Made by a program: the position numbers and the translations under genes. DNA of 64,000 bases from the sequence record OK040907; one strand, given 5' to 3'. How positions within the stretch are numbered: position 1 is the first letter of the stretch; every line of letters begins with the position of its first letter. The notes beneath the pieces are model-generated. The model did no database searches. It was given only the letters and a program-made list of their open reading frames with translations, and was not told the origin of the DNA. This DNA is from Enterobacteria phage Ac3. This document shows, piece by piece, positions 8,935-60,963 of this stretch.

Positions 8935-9176
8935 TAAATTTTGCGAGCCAGATCACGGATCTGACCAACAGTGTAGTCCTGGATGTACACTTTGTTGATC
9001 GGTTCATCGATGAATTTTGCCATGCTTTCGATATCCTTTTGGATCTCTTCCAGAGAGTAAACAATTTTCAGCGCTTTTTCGCGAATCGTAACGTTGTCCG
9101 GACCCGGGTTCTCCTGGATTACTGCTTTAACGTTCGTCATCAGAGATTTGAACTGATACCAAGACAGCTCAATCAT
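8934..9176 (-). CDS. small hypothetical protein in the dexA.1 position, with E. coli-optimised-looking codon usage
   Basis: 80 aa from internal Met MIELSWYQF; ctg/ccg/cgt-rich codons unlike neighbours; paralog pattern with 9169-9429; ATGATTGA overlap upstream and TAATG overlap with dexA. Confidence 0.55.
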   Translation of the reverse strand: MIELSWYQFKSLMTNVKAVIQENPGPDNVTIREKALKIVYSLEEIQKDIESMAKFIDEPINKVYIQDYTVGQIRDLARKI

Positions 9177-18274: not shown

Positions 18275-18907
18275 TTAACCTTTGTTCATAAAAGCGTTGA
18301 AAATTTGGTCATCGATGGAAACGTTCACTTTAGACTGTTCCTCGAACGGCAGTTCGTAACCGCAAATAACGATTTTATGGTCGATACCGAAATAGACAGA
18401 GGCAATGTGGTTAATGTTATTTTCCGTGAAATCCAGGTCCACATCAATGTCTTTCTGGGAAACAGACAGCGGGTAGTTAATACGAATGATACGGTTATCC
18501 TTAACGAAGATGCCACCAACGTACTCGGTGTTACGTTTGAAGTTGACACGTTTACGGAAAGAGAAATATTCCGGTTCTTTGTGTGCACGGCTCATCGGGC
18601 ACAGGGAGTAGCTAGAGTAGCTAATGTCGAAACCTACACCTTCAATATGCGCGAGGGTGTCATGGTTAAACCAGTTGTAATCATAAGCCAGGTCCATGAT
18701 ATTGTAATAAGTAAACGGTACTGGGTTCACATCGTGGGTAGTACCTTTGAAGTCAGCCCATGCAACGATTTCGTTATCTTTTACGATCACAAAAATCGTA
18801 CCGATGAGGTAGCCACGGTTATTTTCGTCTGGAGTGATGTTATAACACTGAGCATCCGGGAATTTACCGTACTTGAACGGTGGGTTTTTATGCATGTAAT
18901 AGATCAT
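18275..18907 (-). CDS. hypothetical protein with E. coli-optimised-looking codon usage
   Basis: 210 aa from ATG at 18907 (MIYYMHKNPPF...), ending SIDDQIFNAFMNKG; ctg/ccg/cgt-rich; starts 1 nt after sp stop. Confidence 0.55.
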   Translation of the reverse strand: MIYYMHKNPPFKYGKFPDAQCYNITPDENNRGYLIGTIFVIVKDNEIVAWADFKGTTHDVNPVPFTYYNIMDLAYDYNWFNHDTLAHIEGVGFDISYSSYSLCPMSRAHKEPEYFSFRKRVNFKRNTEYVGGIFVKDNRIIRINYPLSVSQKDIDVDLDFTENNINHIASVYFGIDHKIVICGYELPFEEQSKVNVSIDDQIFNAFMNKG

Positions 18908-30576: not shown

Positions 30577-31263
30577 TTAAAAATCGTGGGTAGAATCAGC
30601 TTCAAGAGCTACTACATAATTCGCGTGTTCACCTTCAAATTTAGCAGCGCCTTGTTTACCTTTTGCCCAGAGCAGAAGTTTATAATTTCCTGGTTGCATT
30701 TTCATATTTGCCATATTGATAATGAAATTAAATGTATTTTCACCATCATAATCACCAAGAGTCAAAGAATATTTAACACGGGTAAGAGCAGAATCTTCTA
30801 CTTTATTAAAACCATTAATTACGATTTTACCTTCTTTTACCGTGATAGCAATTGTATCAATTTGCAGACCACGAGATACACGCAACAGTTGTTGAAGGTC
30901 TTCAGCTTTAATTTCAGTAACAACAGATGCTACCGGGAATGGAATTGGTTTATTAGGAGCAACTACTGTACTCGGATCGGCTGCTGGCCAAAAAATTGTT
31001 GAGCGGGCATCAGCAATTTTAATATTTCCATCTTCTGACTGGGAAATTTCTGCATCATCATTAACTAGAGACAGAATACCGAGAAAACCGTTCAAATCGT
31101 AAATTGCTACATCAAAATCAATAACGTCAGAAATATTTGCTTCCGCGTAAGTTGTACCATTAACTGCGCGAGTCATAATAAATTGACCGGATTTAAGCAT
31201 AATGCCAGAGTTAATAGTAGCGAAATTTTTAAGCAGAGCAGTAGTATCTTTAGACAGTTTCAT
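30577..31263 (-). CDS. 45: sliding clamp
   Basis: 228-aa ORF; matches T4 gp45 length and order 45-44-62-regA-43. Confidence 0.85.
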   Translation of the reverse strand: MKLSKDTTALLKNFATINSGIMLKSGQFIMTRAVNGTTYAEANISDVIDFDVAIYDLNGFLGILSLVNDDAEISQSEDGNIKIADARSTIFWPAADPSTVVAPNKPIPFPVASVVTEIKAEDLQQLLRVSRGLQIDTIAITVKEGKIVINGFNKVEDSALTRVKYSLTLGDYDGENTFNFIINMANMKMQPGNYKLLLWAKGKQGAAKFEGEHANYVVALEADSTHDF

Positions 31264-31318
31264 GTAATTTCCTTCAATTCAAATGAGATTTAATTTTATA
31301 ACTAATTTAATAAAGCAA

Positions 31319-31708
31319 TTAACGATTAAAATCAGTTGCGATTGTTTCGGCAACAATTTGTGCAGCAACAATTAGACGTTCATCTGCATTACCGCAATAA
31401 TCATCTTCAAGGCGTTCACCACATGAAGTCATAATAAATTTAGCACCGGCGTTTAGGGATTCTGTAGTATGTTTGCGCATTAGTTCAATCCATTTATTAC
31501 TTACTTCACGATCGATAGCTTCATAATACGCATGACGAGCAGGTGCAGATTTAATTTTGTTCTGAATAACTTCCATTGCGTTATCAGAAAGAGACAAAAC
31601 CCATGCGCGACGAATTTTATTTTGGTTTTGTGGATTTGATTCAGAACGCACGTGTTTTGGCTGAATATCTTTTACATCAACAGTATAATTCACAGTAATT
31701 TTAGTCAT
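31319..31708 (-). CDS. rpbA: RNA polymerase binding protein RpbA
   Basis: 129-aa ORF next to gene 45; size-based assignment. Confidence 0.6.
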
Positions 31709-31717
31709 AATACACCT

Positions 31718-31909
31718 TTAGTCATAATAATCAGTAACAGTCCAAGCTTCATTTCTATTGGACATTATTTTTGTATATTCTGCTTTAAATGCATTCCTAA
31801 GCATAGATTCAGTAACTATATGCTCTTCATTAGAAAAATTATTTCTCAGAATATATCGTTTTATTTCAGGAAAAGTTAATAAATGCTGTCCAGTTGAATA
31901 TTCTGCCAC
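31718..31909 (-). CDS. small hypothetical protein
   Basis: 63-aa ORF (GTG start in track). Confidence 0.4.
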   Translation of the reverse strand: MAEYSTGQHLLTFPEIKRYILRNNFSNEEHIVTESMLRNAFKAEYTKIMSNRNEAWTVTDYYD

Positions 31910-31960
31910 AGTTCCTCCGTATAAATATGTTTATCACTCGCTGTATCAAAAGGATATGTT

Positions 31961-32674
31961 ATGAACTATAAACTGATCTACGAAAAACTGATCAGCAACG
32001 CCAAATCCCGTAAACTGGACTGTTACACCGAGTCTCATCACATTATCCCGCGCTGCCTGAATGGCTCCGATGACGCGAGCAACCTGGTAGACCTGACCCC
32101 TGAGGAACATTACGTTGCACACCAGCTCCTGGTTAAAATTTATCCGTCCGAGCCAAAACTGATTTACGCTGCCAACATGATGACTGTATCCACTAAATAT
32201 GCTAAACGCAATAACAAAACGTTCGGTTGGATCCGTCGCAAACTGTGGGAAATCGAAAAAAACAAAGAATTCTCTCAGGAAACCCGTAAGAAAATGTCCG
32301 ATGCGGTTGCCAACAAGGCGCGCCTGACCTGCCCGCACTGTGGTAAATCTGGCCTGTCTGGTAACATGAATCGTTGGCACTTCGATAATTGCCCGAACCA
32401 CCCGAATCCGAAAGTGCGTCCTCCGATGTCTAAAGAACACCGTAATAACATCAGCAACGGTCTGAAAGCAATTATCCTGGAGGAAACCTCTTGCGAATTC
32501 TGCGGTATGATCGGCAAGAAATGCGTGATTGCAGCTCACCGTAACTTCTGTAAGAAAAACCCGAACGGCCGTAAGAAAACCGAGAAAACCGGTACTTGCG
32601 TGCACTGCGGTAAAGTTACGACCTTTGGCAACCTGAGCCGTTGGCACAACGACAACTGCAAGCACAAACACTAA
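31961..32674 (+). CDS. HNH homing-endonuclease-like protein with C-terminal Cys-rich zinc-finger repeats; codon-optimised-looking
   Basis: 237-aa plus-strand ORF with ESHHIIPRCLNGSDDASNLVDLTPEEHYVAH motif; ctg/ccg/cgt codons; stop overlaps gene 46 stop (convergent). Confidence 0.65.
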   Translation: MNYKLIYEKLISNAKSRKLDCYTESHHIIPRCLNGSDDASNLVDLTPEEHYVAHQLLVKIYPSEPKLIYAANMMTVSTKYAKRNNKTFGWIRRKLWEIEKNKEFSQETRKKMSDAVANKARLTCPHCGKSGLSGNMNRWHFDNCPNHPNPKVRPPMSKEHRNNISNGLKAIILEETSCEFCGMIGKKCVIAAHRNFCKKNPNGRKKTEKTGTCVHCGKVTTFGNLSRWHNDNCKHKH

Positions 32675-34359
32675 TTGATCGTAGCAACGGAGAAACGACC
32701 CACTTTCTCCATTTTGATGTGCTGACCGTAGTCCTGTGGGTCGTGGTCTTTGTGGCTGATAATGAAAAAGTTAGTATCTTTCAGGCCATCGAGAATTTTA
32801 GCGACGTTTTTGATACCTTCGGCGTCGAACGCGCCATCGTACACTTCATCCAGGAACAGGCAAGAGATTTTTACACCAGAGACTTTTTCGGCGATGTCAC
32901 GCCAGGTGAACAGGAGGGCGATATCGATACGTGCCTTTTCGCCTTGGGAGAAGGATGCATAAGAGAAATCTTCGCGGCCGCGGGATTTGATAGTTTCGTT
33001 GAATTCCTCGTCCAGGGTGAAAACATAGTCCGCCTCCATAATTTTCAGATAATGGTTGATCTGTTTGTTGAACAGCGGGATGTATTTCTTAATGATCGCG
33101 CCCTTGATGCCGCTGTCTTTCAGCATGTCGGTCAGGATGCCACGGTGGTATTTTTCCATCACCAGGTTGGTTTTAGTCTTCACGATCTTATCCAGCTCTT
33201 CCTGCAGGAGGGCAATTTCGTCCGCGTGGTCAATGAATTCAGAGGAAGCTTTTTCAATGGCAGCTTTAACTTTCTTAGCTTTGTCAACCGTGGTAATCAG
33301 GGACTGTTTCTTGTTACGAATATCGTTCGCCAGAGACTGTTGGGTCTTAATGTTATCACGATATTCGTCCACCAGGACTTTCAGGTTATCGCGGTGGGTG
33401 GACAGTTGTTCAAAAGAGTGGGTGCATTCGCTCACCTTATCTTTAATTTTGCTCACAACTTTATCACCGCTGGACAGTTGAGACAGGCAGGTCGGACACA
33501 GACCGCCCTCGTGGTACATGTTGATAACTTTGTTGTAGCTATCGATTTTGGATTTAATCAGCACGGCCTCCTGGCCAATTTTGTTAAAAGCATCAGTAGG
33601 GTCTTCGTCCAGCACGATGTTGACCAGACGTTCATTCGCTTCCTCGATTTCGCTTTTCAGGGTACGAGCTTCTTTAGCCAGATCGTCGTACATGTTCTGC
33701 AGGCGCGTCAGGTTGTCACCGGTCAGTTTCTTCTGACGTTCTACGTTGTCGTTGTAGATCTTGATCTGTTGGATAATAGAGTCTTTCTTCACATCCAGTA
33801 CCTGGTTCTGAGAGTTCAGTTCACGGATCAGTGCTTTGTTCAGTTTGTCCATCTCCGCCAGGGTGCCAACCTCCAGGAGGTCTTCGACCAGCTTACGGCG
33901 TGCTGGAGTGCTCAGGCCCATGAACGGAGTGTAACCCGCAGTGCCGAGCACAACAATCTGCTTGAAGCTAGCGTAAGACATACCGATCAGCTGTTCGAAC
34001 TCGGCCTGAAAATCTTTGGAAGAGGCAGATTCGTTCAGACGGGTGCCGTTCACAGTGATTTCAAAGACGTTTGGTTTTTGACCGCGTTTGATGTAATATT
34101 TCTTTTCGTCATATTCCATCCACAGTTCTACCAGGAGTTCTTTCTTATTGGTGCTGTTGATCAGCTGGCCTTTCTTAACGTCGCGGAACGGTTTACCGAA
34201 GAGGCCGAAGGTAATAGCCTCCAGCATGGTAGATTTACCGCCACCGTTACGACCAGTGATCAGGGTTTTCTGAACTTTGTCCAGCTGGATATCAACGCCG
34301 TTCTGGCCTACGCTCATAATGTTCTTGTATTTAACACGGTTCAGTTTAAAGGATTTCAT
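32671..34359 (-). CDS. 46: recombination endonuclease subunit (SbcC/Rad50-like ATPase)
   Basis: 562-aa ORF, Walker A GRNGGGKST, coiled coil; protein is gp46-like but DNA is E. coli-optimised-looking. Confidence 0.85.
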   Translation of the reverse strand: MKSFKLNRVKYKNIMSVGQNGVDIQLDKVQKTLITGRNGGGKSTMLEAITFGLFGKPFRDVKKGQLINSTNKKELLVELWMEYDEKKYYIKRGQKPNVFEITVNGTRLNESASSKDFQAEFEQLIGMSYASFKQIVVLGTAGYTPFMGLSTPARRKLVEDLLEVGTLAEMDKLNKALIRELNSQNQVLDVKKDSIIQQIKIYNDNVERQKKLTGDNLTRLQNMYDDLAKEARTLKSEIEEANERLVNIVLDEDPTDAFNKIGQEAVLIKSKIDSYNKVINMYHEGGLCPTCLSQLSSGDKVVSKIKDKVSECTHSFEQLSTHRDNLKVLVDEYRDNIKTQQSLANDIRNKKQSLITTVDKAKKVKAAIEKASSEFIDHADEIALLQEELDKIVKTKTNLVMEKYHRGILTDMLKDSGIKGAIIKKYIPLFNKQINHYLKIMEADYVFTLDEEFNETIKSRGREDFSYASFSQGEKARIDIALLFTWRDIAEKVSGVKISCLFLDEVYDGAFDAEGIKNVAKILDGLKDTNFFIISHKDHDPQDYGQHIKMEKVGRFSVATIN

Positions 34360-34374
34360 TTTGTATCCAATTGT

Positions 34375-35225
34375 TTAGAGGCTAGAGAATTCTTTTACCA
34401 GGGCTTGCAGGCTAGCTTCGATCGGATAACCATTTTTCACCAGCATTTTACGGAACATCACGTGTTTAGGACGGTTATAGCTGATCCACAGTTCGTACAG
34501 TTTGTCTTTGTTGTCCCAGTGGTAACCTTTGCGACGGCTGGCAATGTGAGCCTTACGAATCTCCGGATTTTTCCAGCTTGCAGCGACAGAGTTGGAAATC
34601 GGCTTTTGATATTTTGAGACGGGCACAGCGGAGCGAAAGGCTTACGAGTGTTGAGTTTGGTGCGTTTCATGGTCAGACCGTTTGCCAGATGCCACTGGAA
34701 TTTCTGTTTAGTTTTGAAGTTATTCAGACGTTCTTTGTTATCCTTACGGTTTTTCGCTACGGAGAAGTATTTCAGTGCGCGTTCACGAGCTGCATTACGG
34801 TTCTGTGGGTTGGAGTAATACTGTTGCAGGCGTTTAGAAATGGTATCGGAAACATCCTGTTTGATAAAAGAGTATTCTGCCGCAATCAGATCAACTTCTG
34901 CCAGGCTGAGGTTTTTATAGGTTTTGCCAGACATCATACGATTCAGCGCGTTCAGCATTTTACCGTTTTTACCTTTTGCCAGGAGGAAGTGTGCTTTAAA
35001 GTGGTTAAAGTGGCTGAGGTTCACCAGGTTCCAGGTAGATTTGAGATATTCCGGGAAGATAGATTTCGGCAGCACGTGATGTGCTTCGGTCTTGCCCGGA
35101 GTCTTAACGGTGCTGTTAACGCTAATGAAGTTGATATAGGACTTAGCGTCTTCCTCAGACAGCGCCAGTTTTTCCACCAGTTCTTTGATCAGGAATTCAT
35201 CGTTGATGTCCAGTTTGAAGTTTTT
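34375..35225 (-). pseudogene. HNH endonuclease-like gene, disrupted (frameshift, no canonical start); codon-optimised-looking
   Basis: EAHHVLPKSIFPEY HNH motif in one frame (to about 34640); C-terminal part continues in another frame (34375-34626) after an in-frame TAA; no ATG upstream of the recoded N-terminal segment. Confidence 0.45.
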
Positions 35226-35440
35226 AACAAAAGATTCCTTTTAATGTATCTTTTAGACCATTCTATCATATCATCATAATCTAAAAAGTATTCATCAAAT
35301 TCAGCCATGCAAACAACGCCTTGTGCTGTTTTTGATGTAATATAAATTATTCCAACATATCTAGAATCTTCTTCGGTATAATCAATATTTGCTATAAATT
35401 CATCATTAATGTCAAATGTCGAAAACTTCACAGTATGCAT
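35189..35440 (-). CDS. hypothetical protein, 3' end uncertain
   Basis: native-composition ORF from Met MHTVKFSTFDINDEF; its reading frame runs into the recoded block; contains a motif (FDINDEF) repeated at the start of 34375-35225. Confidence 0.3.
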   Translation of the reverse strand: MHTVKFSTFDINDEFIANIDYTEEDSRYVGIIYITSKTAQGVVCMAEFDEYFLDYDDMIEWSKRYIKRNLLLKTSNWTSTMNS

Positions 35441-35675
35441 CCTTAATACAAGATACAGCCATATCTCGTAATGATTTAGGTGTGTCATTATCTAAAATGT
35501 TGAAGTTAAAAGATACAGCCCAGTCAGTGCAGACCGTAACCTTTTTAATACAATTATCTTCAACCTCTAACGGTTCAAACCAATATTCAATAATTTCTTT
35601 ATGCCCAATATCATCTTTTACTTCGCATTCAAAATGCTGACTCATCATAACATTTTTAAATTCATCAAAAGTCAT
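35412..35675 (-). CDS. hypothetical protein
   Basis: 87-aa ORF overlapping gene 47 stop by 4 nt. Confidence 0.5.
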   Translation of the reverse strand: MTFDEFKNVMMSQHFECEVKDDIGHKEIIEYWFEPLEVEDNCIKKVTVCTDWAVSFNFNILDNDTPKSLRDMAVSCIKDAYCEVFDI

Positions 35676-36691
35676 TGTGTTGCCTCTACATATAACTGAT
35701 TTGCATATTGAATAAGTGCTTCGCGGTCAGAATCAGTGATGTCTGGAATTGCATTAATGTATTCTTCCATCAACGTCTGAAGAGATTGAACTTCAACTTC
35801 TTCGCTTTCATCTGACTCGACAGAGTTATCAATTTTTGACACAACTCGTAATGAATGCACAACTTTTTCTAGTTCAGATTCGAACTTCGTCAGATTTTTG
35901 TCTACCTCAGTTACTATAACACGTACTGATAGATTTGTAAAATCTTTATAGTCAATTTTTCCTTTAAATGGATAATGAATTCTACGATGCCAGGTAGTAT
36001 TGTTTGGAATAAATTCCATTCGTTCTGTTTCTGTATCAAACATCCAGAACCCGCGAGGGTCATTCTCGTCACCTGCAGTTAGTGTCCATGGTGTCCCAAT
36101 ATATCTGACGTTTGCAGCCTCAGAAATAGTATGGAAGTGACCAGACCACACTTCTTTATAAGTCTTAAGGAAATCAGGTTCAAGACCGTGAGATTTCATT
36201 CCTTTATAAAAATAAAATCCATTCAGTTCCCAGTGACCAACACAAAAAGAAGCAGATGAAGTTTTTATGTGCTCGAGAATTTCACCAGTATTTTCTTCAC
36301 ACATCCAAGGAATTAAATCAATTAAACATCCGTCAAAATCTACTGTAGTAGGCTTATCATATACTTTAACATTAGGATATTTAGCCAAAAGCTCAGTAGA
36401 GGCATTTGGAGTTAAAGTATTTTTAAAGTGCATATCATGGTTTCCTACAACAGTATGTAGGGTAATACCAGCATCATCAAGCATTTGAACTATTTCACGA
36501 GCGAACTCCATAGTTTTATGCGTGATTGCTTTTCGCACATCAAAAATATCGCCATATTGAATCCAGGTAGTAATTCCATTTTTCTTAGAATATTCTATTG
36601 CTTGTTTAATTCCATCCAACTGAATGGATTGAACCCACTCGTCATCGGCTTTAACGCCTAAATGCCAATCACCTAAATTTAAAATTTTCAT
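35672..36691 (-). CDS. 47: recombination endonuclease subunit (Mre11/SbcD-like phosphoesterase)
   Basis: 339-aa ORF with metallophosphatase motifs DWHLG...GDIFD...GNHD; matches T4 gp47 length. Confidence 0.9.
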   Translation of the reverse strand: MKILNLGDWHLGVKADDEWVQSIQLDGIKQAIEYSKKNGITTWIQYGDIFDVRKAITHKTMEFAREIVQMLDDAGITLHTVVGNHDMHFKNTLTPNASTELLAKYPNVKVYDKPTTVDFDGCLIDLIPWMCEENTGEILEHIKTSSASFCVGHWELNGFYFYKGMKSHGLEPDFLKTYKEVWSGHFHTISEAANVRYIGTPWTLTAGDENDPRGFWMFDTETERMEFIPNNTTWHRRIHYPFKGKIDYKDFTNLSVRVIVTEVDKNLTKFESELEKVVHSLRVVSKIDNSVESDESEEVEVQSLQTLMEEYINAIPDITDSDREALIQYANQLYVEATQ

Positions 36692-46148: not shown

Positions 46149-46319
46149 TTAGTTGCGCAGCTTATTCAGTTCCTCGTCATCGATCCAAGACTCCAGACCG
46201 GACGGCAGAGCACATTCGATCTCCCACAGGAGTTCCTCAATTTTCTGCAGGCGATCCAGTTCCTCAGCCGGGATGGTCACCATGGACGGTGCACGGCTTA
46301 CGTTAATGTCATAGATCAT
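46149..46319 (-). CDS. small acidic protein with E. coli-optimised-looking codon usage
   Basis: 56-aa ORF below track cutoff (MIYDINVSRAPSMVTIPAEELDRLQKIEELLWEIECALPSGLESWIDDEELNKLRN); GC-rich island bounded by native genes. Confidence 0.5.
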   Translation of the reverse strand: MIYDINVSRAPSMVTIPAEELDRLQKIEELLWEIECALPSGLESWIDDEELNKLRN

Positions 46320-49470: not shown

Positions 49471-50495
49471 TAGTTCAGTGCATTTAATGCATTGTTCAGT
49501 TTAGAACGTTGCTTCGTGAGATTTTTGACTTTTTCTTGTGCTTTTTCTAGCATCTTTTCAGCTTCTAACACTTCATTGGTCGCTTTAACGAGTTCATCAT
49601 CTACTGCCTTGATAGACTTCTCAATCGCATCCGCGTGCCATTTTTCAACAGGTTTAAGACTCGGATTTTCAATAGGAAGAAAATTCACTTTATTGAATTT
49701 CCATGCATCCTTATTACCTGAACTATACATCCAAAATTTAGGATCGTTTGATGAGTAATTGGATAAATTTAAATTTAAGTTATCTTGCACTTCCTGCTTC
49801 TTCTCTTGCGTGACTTCGTCCTTTCTCAAAAAATCATATTTAAATGAAACAATCATATCAAGTTCATATGTTGTTGTGTCTAATTTAAATCGTTCGAAAT
49901 GCTGTGAAATCTTAGACCGAACAGCGGCAACAACATCCATATACTTAAATGCTTCTGTCAACTGTGATTTAAGGCATTCACAAATTGAAAGAGAATTTTT
50001 TGTATTAGGTTTAAAGCTAATTCGTGCAGTTCTATTATTTTCTTTTAATGGTCTTACTTCCATCTGAAGAGTATAACCATCAAATTTCAAGTTCTTTAAG
50101 TTAATATCAGAACCTTTTAATCGACTAGCAGTTGATAAAATTTGCTTTAATTGTCTACGGAACAGAGCAATAAATCTCCATTCAATACGATAATGATTTG
50201 GATTGAAAAATCCAGATGATAAATCGACCTTACTCTGACCAACACCTTGAACAAATAGAGGATTTTTATAATCAATAGTTTTACAGAAATCGGTGAGCTG
50301 CTCACGAGCAGTCATTTGTGTAATATATCCCGCTTTACTAAAATGACGTAACCATTCACTGCTATTCATATACTTAAAGTGAATGGAACTATTAACTCTA
50401 TCAGGGTCTAAATTATTTTGGCACAAAAATGTCATAACATCACGAGTATAGCTGGCATTACGAACCATATCTTCAATTTGAGAACGAGTTTTCAT
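49470..50495 (-). CDS. hypothetical protein with C-terminal coiled coil (array member 3)
   Basis: 341-aa ORF. Confidence 0.55.
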   Translation of the reverse strand: MKTRSQIEDMVRNASYTRDVMTFLCQNNLDPDRVNSSIHFKYMNSSEWLRHFSKAGYITQMTAREQLTDFCKTIDYKNPLFVQGVGQSKVDLSSGFFNPNHYRIEWRFIALFRRQLKQILSTASRLKGSDINLKNLKFDGYTLQMEVRPLKENNRTARISFKPNTKNSLSICECLKSQLTEAFKYMDVVAAVRSKISQHFERFKLDTTTYELDMIVSFKYDFLRKDEVTQEKKQEVQDNLNLNLSNYSSNDPKFWMYSSGNKDAWKFNKVNFLPIENPSLKPVEKWHADAIEKSIKAVDDELVKATNEVLEAEKMLEKAQEKVKNLTKQRSKLNNALNALN

Positions 50496-52838: not shown

Positions 52839-53558
52839 TTAGGATTCTTCTAAATGTCTTTTCTGAAAAGTTGATACCATACTACGATACGGTTCATTTG
52901 GATATCCGTGTTTTATAGCTTCCTTTGTAAATTTTCTCCATCCATATTTAGTTTCTTTCCAAAGCTCGAATAATTCATCTTCATATTGCCATATAGTTAA
53001 ATGAGAACGCTTTGCAGCTTTAATTCCATTAATATGCTTTTCTTTTACTACAGGATTGCTTAGTTTCTTTTTAATAATATTACTAACTTTTCTAACAAAA
53101 ACTGGGTCCTTATATCGTTGCGAAGTTTTTATTGAAGTGTTTAATTTAGCTTCCGGCGTGGATGTGACCTCTTTCATCTTTTTCTTCATATGCTGTATAT
53201 GATTAGGATTTTTCCATAAATTTATAGAATGCTTTTTGCATTTTATCCTAGTTTCATCTGCAACCTTTCCTCCTTCACCCCCGTATGACAGGTTAACACA
53301 GTTTTTTCCATATTTCAATTTACCTGCCATGATATATAATATTTCAGCTTGTACCATTTTATCATAATTATCAAAAACTTCTAAAACCGTTTTTGATAAT
53401 ATGTGGTCATTTGACACTTTTACACGTTCTATATAATTTCCACTACCAACATACGAATCATTGATGTTATTAGTTATATGTCGACCATAATAGTATTTCT
53501 TAATACCTGTCTTTAAATTTAATATTTCAGTTTTATAGATAGTAAAATATTTTTTCAT
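52839..53558 (-). CDS. putative GIY-YIG (Seg-like) homing endonuclease
   Basis: 239-aa ORF with N-terminal YYYGRH...SYVGSG motif and basic C-terminal half. Confidence 0.5.
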   Translation of the reverse strand: MKKYFTIYKTEILNLKTGIKKYYYGRHITNNINDSYVGSGNYIERVKVSNDHILSKTVLEVFDNYDKMVQAEILYIMAGKLKYGKNCVNLSYGGEGGKVADETRIKCKKHSINLWKNPNHIQHMKKKMKEVTSTPEAKLNTSIKTSQRYKDPVFVRKVSNIIKKKLSNPVVKEKHINGIKAAKRSHLTIWQYEDELFELWKETKYGWRKFTKEAIKHGYPNEPYRSMVSTFQKRHLEES

Positions 53559-54637: not shown

Positions 54638-55648
54638 TTACTTATAGTAGGAGCGGTGGTTCTCCAGGTAAACTTTTTCCAGAAAGTCATCCCAGAAACC
54701 CATGTCAACCTTTTGCTGCATGCCATTCTTGGATGCTTCCGTGCTCGCAGCCTCCACCTGATCAACTACGTCCTCGAGGAATTCCTGCACGGTTTTGAAC
54801 GGGTGCTTGCCCAGTTTGACATCCAGGATAAACGGCGCATCCTGCAGTGGGTAGATCAGGTCGCCGGTTTTGTAAATTTCCAGGAGCTGCAGGCCACCGC
54901 GGCATGCATGGGACAGAGCTTTCCAGTCGATGCCTTCGTTTGCCTCTGCTTTGCGGGCGCGTTCGCCGTATTCAGCATCCAGTTTATTCAGGGATTGTTT
55001 CAGTTCGATCAGGCTCAGGGTAGTCTGATATTTACGACCCAGCACCGTATAGAAAGTTTGCGGGCCGGTTTTTTCGTGGTTGTGAAACACCCATTCACAG
55101 AATTCGTTTTCCGGCAGGCGGTGTTTGATATCTTCGATTTTGGTACGGCGTTGACCCTGAGTGCCGTCTTCGCGATAAACGTTGCGCTGGTCCGGGATCT
55201 GATTCACGACTTTCAGGACGTCGCGCAGAGCGGCCAGACGGGAGCCCTTAACACCATATTTAGAGGCTTGTTTGCGTACATAGCCCAGGTAAGATTTCAT
55301 ATTGGTAGTGTAGAAGCGGCTGCGGTTGTCCTGAATGAATTTCCAAACGTCAGGCAGATCGCTCTTAACCACCAGTTCTGGCGGCGTATGCAGCATGTCG
55401 AGTGCCACGGTCTCACCGTCCGCAGCCAGTTTGAAAAAATACTTGAGGCTATACAGTTCGTGGTCGATGTCATCTTTGGTATTCTTGCTAGAGGTATTGT
55501 TGGTGTTTTTAGACATGTGTTCTTTCACGTTGCCGATCAGAATGTCACGTGCCGGTGGCACGAAGATCTCTTTGAAGTCGACATCGCTTTCCGGGGTGGA
55601 AGTGCCGTACAGGTGGCTGCCAAAGTAGGATTTCATCACAGTCTTCAT
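54638..55648 (-). CDS. Pol-beta-superfamily nucleotidyltransferase-like protein; codon-optimised-looking
   Basis: 336-aa ORF with N-terminal GS-x11-DVD motif (YFGSHLYGTSTPESDVDF) and candidate third acidic residue in ALDMLH; ctg/ccg/cgt-rich DNA. Confidence 0.55.
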   Translation of the reverse strand: MKTVMKSYFGSHLYGTSTPESDVDFKEIFVPPARDILIGNVKEHMSKNTNNTSSKNTKDDIDHELYSLKYFFKLAADGETVALDMLHTPPELVVKSDLPDVWKFIQDNRSRFYTTNMKSYLGYVRKQASKYGVKGSRLAALRDVLKVVNQIPDQRNVYREDGTQGQRRTKIEDIKHRLPENEFCEWVFHNHEKTGPQTFYTVLGRKYQTTLSLIELKQSLNKLDAEYGERARKAEANEGIDWKALSHACRGGLQLLEIYKTGDLIYPLQDAPFILDVKLGKHPFKTVQEFLEDVVDQVEAASTEASKNGMQQKVDMGFWDDFLEKVYLENHRSYYK

Positions 55649-56109
55649 TATTCAGCTTTGTATTCGATCACCGGACACACTTTCGCTTTGCGCGCTTTCA
55701 GGAACTCAACAATGATAGATTTCTTCGGTTGGATTGGCGGCAGGCCTTTGTAAGCGCGATCGATGTTTTCAACGTGCAGCGCGTAATCTTTCTTCCATTT
55801 GTAGTCTTTGTATTTCTCACGCAGGTGCGCCGGAATCACGAAGGAGCCGATAATCAGGAGAACCACCAGGAGTGCCAGAATGAACGCGGATGGCAGGAGG
55901 GTCCACAGGCTACCGAAGATCAGCCAGCGCTGCAGGGATTCAGCACAGATAATAGTCAGACCAACCAGGATGGCACAACCGAAGATGGAAACGAAAAACG
56001 TCGGGATGGCGATAGACCAGAAGTACGCGCACAGGGTTTTAGGGCGCTGCCACTCGTCGTTAAACAGTTTGAACAGCTTATAGTGCCAAGAGTTTTCATT
56101 AATGATCAT
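55648..56109 (-). CDS. two-transmembrane-helix membrane protein; codon-optimised-looking
   Basis: 153-aa ORF with two long hydrophobic segments; TAATG overlap with the nucleotidyltransferase gene; native RBS upstream. Confidence 0.55.
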   Translation of the reverse strand: MIINENSWHYKLFKLFNDEWQRPKTLCAYFWSIAIPTFFVSIFGCAILVGLTIICAESLQRWLIFGSLWTLLPSAFILALLVVLLIIGSFVIPAHLREKYKDYKWKKDYALHVENIDRAYKGLPPIQPKKSIIVEFLKARKAKVCPVIEYKAE

Positions 56110-60083: not shown

Positions 60084-60514
60084 TTATTTCGGTTTACCTT
60101 CCTTCACGAAGTCTGGGTACGGATAAAAGCCAGAGTAGAAACCTTCGCCTTTGTGGTTGATACAACCTTTGTTGGAACAATAGCACCAGTAATCGAAATC
60201 GCAAGCCATTTCGTCGTTGCACAGGGCGAAAACGACCGGCCATTTACATTTTTCACAGTGCGCGTTTTTCAGGATGGAAGTCTGGGATACCGCCAGGTGA
60301 CTTTCAGGCAGTATTCCTCCACATGCTGTTTGCGACCTTTCTTGTCGATGAAGGTGTATTCAACGAAGGTACCGATGTAATCTTTATCCACGTCGTGCGG
60401 AGAGTTGATCGGGCACTTAGTACGGCAGATGCGTTCCCACTGACGAATGATTACAGCCTTGTTTTTCGGGTCGAACGGGTGTGGATAATGTACTTTTACA
60501 GCAGCGGCTCCCAA
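60084..60514 (-). pseudogene. Cys-rich protein gene split across two reading frames; codon-optimised-looking
   Basis: frame A (TTG start in track) has protein-like sequence to about 60300; frame B continues with HCEKCKWPVVFALCNDEMACDFDYWCYCSNKGCINHKGEG... to a TAA at 60084-60086; no ATG. Confidence 0.4.
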
Positions 60515-60963
60515 TCAACGATTACGATTTCCAGTTTGGAAGAATAGGTGTCCAGGATACCTTCAATGATGTCCCAGTTGCCTTTACCGATGCCGGCGCC
60601 GATGCGCGGCATGTAGATGGTTGGTTTGATCAGTTTGTTTTCACCGAATTCGTTCAGCTCCAGCATACAATTCATCAGCGCAGAATATTCAAAGTTTGGG
60701 CCCGGCTGGAACTGAGTGTACAGGTTAAAACAGTACGCTTTGTGGGTGCGAAAGTACTTTTCATACACGGAGTAGCTACCCAGTTTAGTCACGTCGCCCC
60801 ATTCGGTCTGCAGCTTGTCAGCTTCCAGGATTTTCGGAAACGCTTTGGTCAGCTGACCGGCTACACCCGCTTTCATGGTATGGAAGCAGTTACAGCCGTG
60901 AGCGATGTTTTTACCTTCGGCAAACAGCGCTACGATATCGCCTTTGATGTATTTGACAATCAT
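60496..60963 (-). CDS. macro-domain protein (Poa1p-like ADP-ribose-1''-phosphate phosphatase family); codon-optimised-looking
   Basis: 155-aa ORF with IAHGCNCFHTMKAGVAGQL and YMPRIGAGIGKGNWD motifs resembling Poa1p; ATGA overlap with upstream native gene. Confidence 0.55.
   Translation of the reverse strand: MIVKYIKGDIVALFAEGKNIAHGCNCFHTMKAGVAGQLTKAFPKILEADKLQTEWGDVTKLGSYSVYEKYFRTHKAYCFNLYTQFQPGPNFEYSALMNCMLELNEFGENKLIKPTIYMPRIGAGIGKGNWDIIEGILDTYSSKLEIVIVDWEPLL

Follow-up and report, generated by a model that had tools for sequence, protein, structure and literature searches.

Synonymous recoding of gene 46 and two flanking HNH endonuclease genes in a T4-type phage sequence

In a 64,000-nucleotide (nt) stretch of Enterobacteria phage Ac3 (sequence record OK040907), hereafter the window, the essential recombination gene 46 lies between two HNH endonuclease genes, here called HNH+ and HNH2, and all three differ strongly at the DNA level from their counterparts in phage RB51. 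An interpretation made from the letters of the window alone (the sequence-only reading) had seen in this locus either a footprint of homing and co-conversion or an engineered, cleavage-resistant allele of gene 46. We therefore asked what kind of process could have changed these genes. Our answer, to which we assign a probability of about 0.93, is that the 3.26-kilobase (kb) block is an artificial synonymous rewrite of RB51, made by automated codon optimization and laid over the published genome. The locus comprises the following features (aa, amino acids; ORF, open reading frame):

31961–32674, plus strand: HNH+ gene (RB51ORF057 / RB32ORF054w), 237 aa, a mob-like, free-standing gene for a predicted HNH homing endonuclease
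32671–34359, minus strand: gene 46, Rad50/SbcC-like recombination nuclease subunit, 562 aa, Pfam AAA_23 and SMC_N
34360–34374, minus strand: spacer with the gene 46 ribosome-binding region, 15 nt, 0 mismatches to RB51, between two recoded ORFs
34375–34695, minus strand: ORF of the HNH2 C-terminal fragment, recoded; the native peptide survives at 34375–34599 only
34696–35228, minus strand: HNH2 N-terminal fragment with an HH..P..N..H core, 110 of 177 codons changed, 0 amino-acid differences
35228–35431, minus strand: gene 46.1, native sequence, Pfam DUF5487 at 4.5e-50

Extent of the recoding

We compared all 64,000 positions of the window base by base with bases 1–64,000 of RB51 (NC_012635). 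The two sequences have identical coordinates and 0 insertions or deletions, and the 1614 substitutions between them all fall inside six ORF-bounded blocks, apart from one single-nucleotide polymorphism (SNP); the remainder is identical. A megablast search with window positions 31000–36500 returned RB51 (FJ839693 / NC_012635) and RB68 at matching coordinates and in one ungapped piece, at an identity of only 85%.

The main block, at 31966–35226, differs from RB51 at 836 of 3261 bases, and the guanine-plus-cytosine (GC) content rises from ~0.33 to 0.47 precisely across it. Despite the 836 substitutions, not one of 1046 unambiguously framed codons changes its amino acid and, for this reason, the block cannot be the work of chance. 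Translations of the window and RB51 are identical for HNH+ (237 aa), gp46 (562 aa), the N-terminal part of HNH2 (34696–35228) and its C-terminal part (34375–34599), and the substitutions include 33 serine, 54 leucine and 20 arginine codons that switched codon box, as well as 26 codons altered at all three positions. The spacers at 31910–31960 (51 nt) and 34360–34374 (15 nt) carry 0 mismatches to RB51, as does the sequence at 35229–35300, and all six blocks fall within ORF limits.

Gene 46 itself is recoded over its full length, with 370 of 563 codons changed, 0 amino-acid differences and the stop codon TAA replaced by TAG, while gene 47 (35672–36691), beside the recoded block, retains its native sequence; on both genes, the sequence-only reading was correct. 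HNH+ is likewise recoded synonymously, from codon 2 on (141 of 238 codons changed), and its protein equals that of RB51. Gene 46 of the window is 75.0% identical to that of RB51 in DNA and 100% in protein, in contrast to the natural divergence between T4 and RB51, where the corresponding values are 95.4% and 95.5%.

Although the block had been correctly recognized from the letters alone as a recoded unit, five others accompany it in the window; the six blocks and the SNP are located as follows:

8943–9168: dexA.1
18284–18902: 61.2
31966–35226: HNH+, gene 46 and the two HNH2 fragments (the main block)
46152–46314: RB32ORF081c
49918: single SNP in nrdC.5
54639–56104: nrdC.11 and RB32ORF096c
60085–60955: RB32ORF111c, tk.3 and tk.4

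The five further blocks are also synonymously recoded relative to RB51, with the same rise in GC and the codon signature of the main block (r = 0.94 between the codon fractions of the two sets). Their genes have no obvious common function, and no endonuclease gene lies near them. The SNP at 49918, outside every recoded block, is a T-to-C change relative to RB51 and RB68 that causes the substitution Q193R in nrdC.5; the C variant was absent from the 493 phage records matching that stretch.

The GC contrast of 0.47 against 0.33 and the sharp edges of the block superficially resemble a foreign island, as though the interval from 45.2 to 46.1 had been naturally acquired by horizontal transfer from a higher-GC relative and its proteins then maintained by purifying selection. 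We consider such transfer from a GC-richer phage virtually ruled out, given that DNA divergent by 25% encodes proteins that are 100% identical, that this identity extends to a frameshifted pseudogene, whose amino-acid sequence selection cannot preserve, and that the spacers are untouched. Furthermore, the frameshift stands at the same position as in RB51, the codons were redrawn independently, and no homologue exceeds 76% DNA identity. Specifically, of 1574 phage records containing a homologue of gene 46, none comes closer to the recoded gene than 75.8% DNA identity, and exact strings of the recoded gene gave 0 matches in the metagenome contigs of JGI or in IMG/VR. Proteins identical to this gp46 are known only from contigs of the RB51/RB68 type, all of which carry the native DNA.

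Codon choice and damage at overlapping frames

The source of the new codons was traced by correlating within-amino-acid codon fractions, with 30 ribosomal-protein, rpoA and elongation-factor genes of E. coli K-12 serving as the high-expression reference. The codon fractions of the main block closely follow those of the highly expressed E. coli genes (r = 0.94), compared with r = 0.57 for the poorly expressed E. coli gsp operon genes, 0.26 for the unrecoded phage genes of the window and 0.23 for the same ORFs in RB51. Fifteen rare codons (TTA, TTG, CTT, CTA, AGA, AGG, CGA, CGG, AGT, TCA, TCG, GGA, GGG, ACA and ATA) have a count of 0 in the main block. The number of codons left unchanged, 381, matches the 392.9 +/- 12.4 expected under independent redraw, that is, the new codons were drawn without memory of the native ones. 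Such a pattern is obtained when proteins are back-translated stochastically with a high-expression codon table and a cutoff for rare codons.

Where reading frames overlap, the rewrite is damaging, and two features of the window are affected at this locus:

34602–34695, minus strand: overlap of the HNH2 fragment ORFs, 94 nt, recoded once per frame; neither native frame survives
35225–35227, minus strand: former TGA stop codon of 46.1, now TTA (GTGA to GTTA)

Between 34602 and 34700, there are 45 substitutions, about twice the local density, with 22 at third positions of frame 2 and 17 at third positions of frame 1. Recoding of the overlap removed the stop codon of the N-terminal fragment (34602–34604), so that the ORF in the window extends to 34458, and turned the native ATG of the C-terminal fragment (34695–34693) into GTG. 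The frame-1 translation of the latter equals that of RB51 from ISNSVAAS to the stop and is scrambled upstream of this point. The native GTG start of HNH2 (35228–35226) was redrawn to GTT like any internal valine codon, leaving no start at the native position; because this start overlaps the end of 46.1, the same change abolished the 46.1 stop and lengthened that frame by 12 codons, to 35189 (window ORF 35189–35488). Similar corruption is seen elsewhere in the window at two ATGA overlaps (60287–60290 and 60496–60499), where the starts of RB32ORF111c and tk.3 changed from ATG to GTA and the stop of tk.3 from TGA to TAT, so that the affected genes are startless or read through.

The antisense strand bears a related mark. 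Opposite gene 46, the antisense frame is free of stops for 563 codons in the window versus 173 in RB51, because the codons TTA, CTA and TCA, the complements of which are stops, have been removed. Long antisense ORFs of this kind are by-products, not genes; those facing the recoded genes span 32641–34617 (plus strand, 658 aa), 31946–32671 (minus strand, 241 aa) and 34578–35279 (plus strand, 233 aa).

All these features are explained by a single procedure. It would first have picked four consecutive frames, namely, HNH+, gene 46 and, from the frameshifted HNH2, both fragments; each frame would then have been back-translated independently from a table of codon usage in highly expressed E. coli genes, with rare codons excluded; and finally, the new sequence would have been written back in place, blind to overlaps and to starts other than ATG. 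The same procedure would have made the other five blocks. Such a rewrite would produce at once the GC jump, the identical proteins, the untouched spacers, the scrambled overlap, the loss of the GTG start and the 46.1 stop, and the open antisense frames. In most of these respects, that is, the identical proteins, the independent redraw of codons with E. coli high-expression usage, the disappearance of rare codons, the raised GC content and the stop-free antisense frames, the block is like a codon-optimized synthetic gene. Unlike the usual genes of that class, it has been rewritten in place in a phage genome, with pseudogene fragments included, overlaps ignored and neighbors damaged, and we came across no design record for it.

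Several points weigh against an automated codon-optimizing rewrite or limit what can be said of it. The SNP at 49918, with its amino-acid replacement, does not fit the codon-redraw pattern. The recoded set includes two pseudogene fragments that are not coding sequences (CDS) in the RefSeq table, so that the list of ORFs used by the procedure is one that we infer. The collections searched are large but not exhaustive, and a private or very recent record of a synthetic construct could exist. Finally, the sequence is silent on who made the change and on whether the DNA exists physically: the agent and the purpose of the recoding are matters of inference, and the rewritten DNA was possibly synthesized in addition to being rewritten in the computer.

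This brings us to the second proposal of the sequence-only reading, an engineered, cleavage-resistant gene 46. The man-made part of that proposal stands, whereas the tie to endonucleases and cleavage resistance finds no support. In its fuller form, the proposal holds that the window represents a deliberately engineered, physically built derivative of RB51, in which gene 46 and its neighbors were made resistant to cleavage or able to evade a defense. The redrawn codon table and the identical proteins give a clear man-made pattern, and recoding would erase a nuclease or guide-RNA recognition sequence within gene 46. Nevertheless, the endonuclease genes and a dead pseudogene were recoded as well, five unrelated blocks without a nearby endonuclease gene bear the same signature, and the careless damage to the starts of HNH2, tk.3 and RB32ORF111c, to the stops of 46.1 and tk.3 and to the doubly scrambled overlap speaks against purposeful design. 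Moreover, we found no publication on a recoded T4-type phage or on a recoded RB51, and no public copy of the DNA. Deliberate engineering of this kind thus appears very unlikely to us.

We hold it to be very unlikely that a derivative of RB51 was physically built with six host-codon-optimized cassettes, including essential gene 46 and the two flanking endonuclease genes. If it was, the window would be a rare multi-locus recoded T4-type phage, and the derivative may have been built for tests of synonymous effects on homing targeting, sequence-directed host defenses and fitness. Large-scale synonymous change with retention of the protein is also the principle of recoding for virus attenuation, exemplified by codon deoptimization of PhiX174 (PMC7881332). 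Such designs are deliberate, published and usually deoptimize structural genes; in contrast, the block in the window is optimized toward the host, its genes look arbitrary and its overlaps are damaged.

For the biology of the phage, the recoding carries little weight: it is not natural, the HNH genes around gene 46 are already annotated in RB51, RB68, T6 and many of their relatives, and neither the gene order nor manipulation of this type is new. Its value lies in its pattern: a sharp GC and codon-usage island that leaves proteins and spacers unchanged but damages overlapping starts and stops is the mark of a manipulated sequence. Islands of this sort should not be taken for horizontal transfer, homing or selection.

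Native gene order and the divergent 3' tract of gene 46

The arrangement beneath the rewrite was examined in natural relatives. Two HNH genes around gene 46 are annotated in RB51 and RB68, and in Petrov et al. 2010 (PMC2993671), RB51 is credited with one 'other HNH' gene besides a single mob-like HNH gene. The HNH+ reading frame is intact, whereas that of HNH2 is split in RB51, RB68 and the window. Intact forms of both genes are present in Aplg8 and of HNH2 only in T6, which has HNH2 at 284 aa and no HNH+. T4 has neither gene; there, gene 46 directly adjoins 45.2 and 46.1, and its GTG start shares bases with the stop of 46.1. Close copies of HNH+ (at least 97.9% identity) were found in 59 records and those of HNH2 in 71, compared with ~600 records matching the region. 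Thus, the HNH genes do occur in natural relatives (RB51, RB68, Aplg8, T6 and about 60 others), but the recoded DNA of gene 46 occurs in none of them.

We aligned the native gene 46 of RB51, T4 and T6 and counted the differences per 100-nt window. Most such windows contain 0–7 differences. In the last ~290 nt of the gene (32671–32960), RB51 differs from T4 and T6 at 18–26 positions per 100 nt, which amounts to ~20% divergence. Counted by codon, there are 50 DNA and 20 amino-acid differences in codons 467–555 (89 codons), against 22 and 3, respectively, in codons 34–466. The RB51-type 3' tract (at least 94.6% identity) is present in 60 records, which comprise all 59 HNH+ records and OR539217.1, so that HNH+ and this tract occur together in 59 of 59 HNH+ records. 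In the remaining Tequatrovirus records, the 3' allele of gene 46 is ~80–82% identical to the RB51 type. OR539217.1 carries the 3' tract without a close copy of HNH+. At the 5' end of the gene, RB51 equals T6, both of which have HNH2, and there are 7 differences from T4 in the first 100 nt.

This native tract fits the pattern expected of a homing endonuclease gene that travels with a presumably uncleavable allele of its neighbor, with cleavage by HNH+ being putative. Free-standing endonuclease genes of T-even phages are known to drag flanking polymorphisms along (PMC2988022), and the concept of an endonuclease gene traveling with a variant neighbor allele also appears in PMC10055350. The tract appears to provide a clean natural example of an endonuclease gene accompanied by a variant of the neighboring essential gene, and its position probably marks the location of the HNH+ target. 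In the window, the recoding overwrites this natural tract.

Could the recoding itself be such a footprint, with repair after cleavage by a flanking endonuclease having copied a diverged donor allele of gene 46? The reported dragging of flanking polymorphisms (PMC2988022) and the presence in native RB51 of precisely this kind of tract, linked to HNH+ in every record that has the gene, lend the idea some appeal. The natural tract, however, belongs to the RB51 reference and not to the differences between the window and RB51. The latter are uniform at ~25% over 3.26 kb, purely synonymous, bounded by ORFs, skip the spacers and use codons optimal for E. coli, and they are absent from all 1574 phage records mentioned above; amino-acid changes number 20 in the 89 codons of the natural tract and 0 in the 1046 codons of the recoding. 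Relatives carrying both HNH genes (RB51, RB68 and Aplg8) have the native DNA. We therefore consider co-conversion extremely improbable and reject it as the source of the window-specific changes, which are synonymous only, include the endonuclease genes themselves and have no natural donor allele that we could find. The homing footprint read from the letters of the window likewise fails, given that the recoding spans the endonuclease genes, ends at ORF ends, employs E. coli codons and recurs in five blocks elsewhere.

The two HNH genes and their insertion sites

Beneath the artificial rewrite lies the gene order of RB51 and RB68, with HNH+ separating 45.2 from the 3' end of gene 46, and HNH2 inserted after codon 6 of gene 46. 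Both proteins have predicted homing activity, and they align with each other across the HH..P..N..H core.

HNH+ sits in the spacer between 45.2 and gene 46, on the strand opposite to gene 46. As described by the sequence-only reading, it is a 237-aa plus-strand HNH gene with CxxC repeats (31961–32674) that converges on gene 46, and the stop codons of the two genes overlap at 32671–32674 (CTAA in the window, TTAA in RB51). The protein contains the HH..P..N..H core and, at its C-terminus, three CxxC(x13-16)H(x3)C repeats starting from residues 124, 178 and 213. It matches PHROG 655 'homing endonuclease' at 2e-68 and also PHROG 12434 'HNH endonuclease'. The Pfam and NCBIfam searches with HNH+ yielded just a sub-threshold HNH match (17 bits, under the Pfam cutoff of 21.4) and a far-below-cutoff IscB match, and a sequence search of solved structures gave no significant match, the best E-value being 0.17. 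Upstream of the gene, one further feature is of note:

31920–31927, plus strand: TATAAATA, fits the late-promoter consensus of T4, 34 nt ahead of the HNH+ start codon, in the unrecoded spacer between 45.2 and HNH+

By its fit to the T4 consensus, this motif is a putative late promoter, and HNH+ is probably driven from it. Free-standing endonuclease genes use middle or late promoters (PMC2988022). No late-promoter motif was detected inside the recoded ORFs, in either the window or the native version, and scans of both versions for sigma-70 promoters and terminators gave counts within the expectation from shuffled sequences.

The minus-strand gene HNH2 separates 46.1 from gene 46 and is split over two frames, which in native RB51 correspond to ORFs at 34602–35228 and 34375–34695. 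In Aplg8 and T6, the homologue is intact, at 284 aa, and its match to PHROG 655 'homing endonuclease' reaches 7.8e-45 (Aplg8 protein); HNH2 also matches PHROG 12434 'HNH endonuclease'; there was no match in Pfam or NCBIfam. The site of the split is short:

34701–34705, minus strand: native frameshift site, A5 in RB51 and RB68 versus A6 in Aplg8 and T6; its bases are recoded in the window, and the missing base is inherited

The sole difference between HNH2 of RB51 and that of Aplg8 is a one-base gap in alignment column 523, suggesting that HNH2 was inactivated in RB51 and RB68 by a one-base deletion in a run of A. That HNH2 is frameshifted and startless was stated in the sequence-only reading, and both observations hold for the window, but the frameshift is not specific to it, being present in both public records, RB51 and RB68, and the native start is GTG. 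Because the site lies in a homopolymer, a sequencing error is possible, as is a mutation of a shared stock; the A5 run is common to the RB51 and RB68 records, which were deposited separately. The annotation of the pseudogene is inconsistent between these near-identical phages: the locus tags of RB51 skip from RB51ORF058 to RB51ORF061, with no CDS listed for the split gene, and RB68 has 34602–35228 and a short ORF at 34375–34491.

HNH2 interrupts the ancestral gene 46 immediately behind its sixth codon. The first 18 nt of HNH2, GTGAAGAATTTTAAACTT, are those of T4 gene 46 and, therefore, the 'non-canonical start' of HNH2 is the inherited gene 46 GTG. HNH2 thus starts at a GTG borrowed from gene 46 and has also taken over the coupling of that gene's translation to 46.1. 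Downstream of HNH2, gene 46 resumes behind a new spacer for ribosome binding, with ATGAAATCATTTAAACTT as its replacement start, and the sequence TTTAAACTT borders the HNH2 insert on both sides.

The similarity of FDINDEF, at the beginning of HNH2, to LDINDEF in the adjacent gene had been ascribed to a duplication or a junction artefact. A duplication it is, and a native one, not a junction artefact of the recoding: codons 6–12 of 46.1 (TTGACATTAATGATGAATTT) recur exactly at codons 6–12 of native HNH2, as a 20-nt exact direct repeat in native RB51, directly after the six borrowed codons. The DINDEF motif is found in 46.1 of both T4 and T6, and T4, which lacks HNH2, has it in 46.1 only. In native RB51, the copies of the repeat lie in 35190–35228 and 35393–35431. 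In both native RB51 and T6, HNH2 begins with the six gene 46 codons followed by an exact 18–20-nt copy of 46.1 codons 6/7–12. Because alignments with HNH2 relatives do not begin until about residue 24, the N-terminus of the protein looks like a mosaic of local sequence.

Overall, HNH+ and HNH2 resemble the mobA-mobE-type HNH genes of T4 in their match to PHROG 655, the HH..P..N..H core, their position at the edges of conserved genes or between them, and their sporadic distribution among close relatives; HNH+ additionally has the late-promoter-like TATAAATA upstream and the divergent tract of a neighboring essential gene. They differ from the mob-type genes in that HNH2 is frameshifted in RB51 and RB68, the Pfam HNH match of HNH+ is sub-threshold, HNH2 has none, and the endonuclease function of both is predicted; of the mob proteins, MobE of T4 has been characterized (PMC2790892). 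Elsewhere in the window, RB32ORF093c (52839–53558), annotated in RB51 as a seg-like GIY-YIG endonuclease gene and located between nrdC.9 and nrdC.10, is another free-standing homing endonuclease gene, and its sequence in the window is native.

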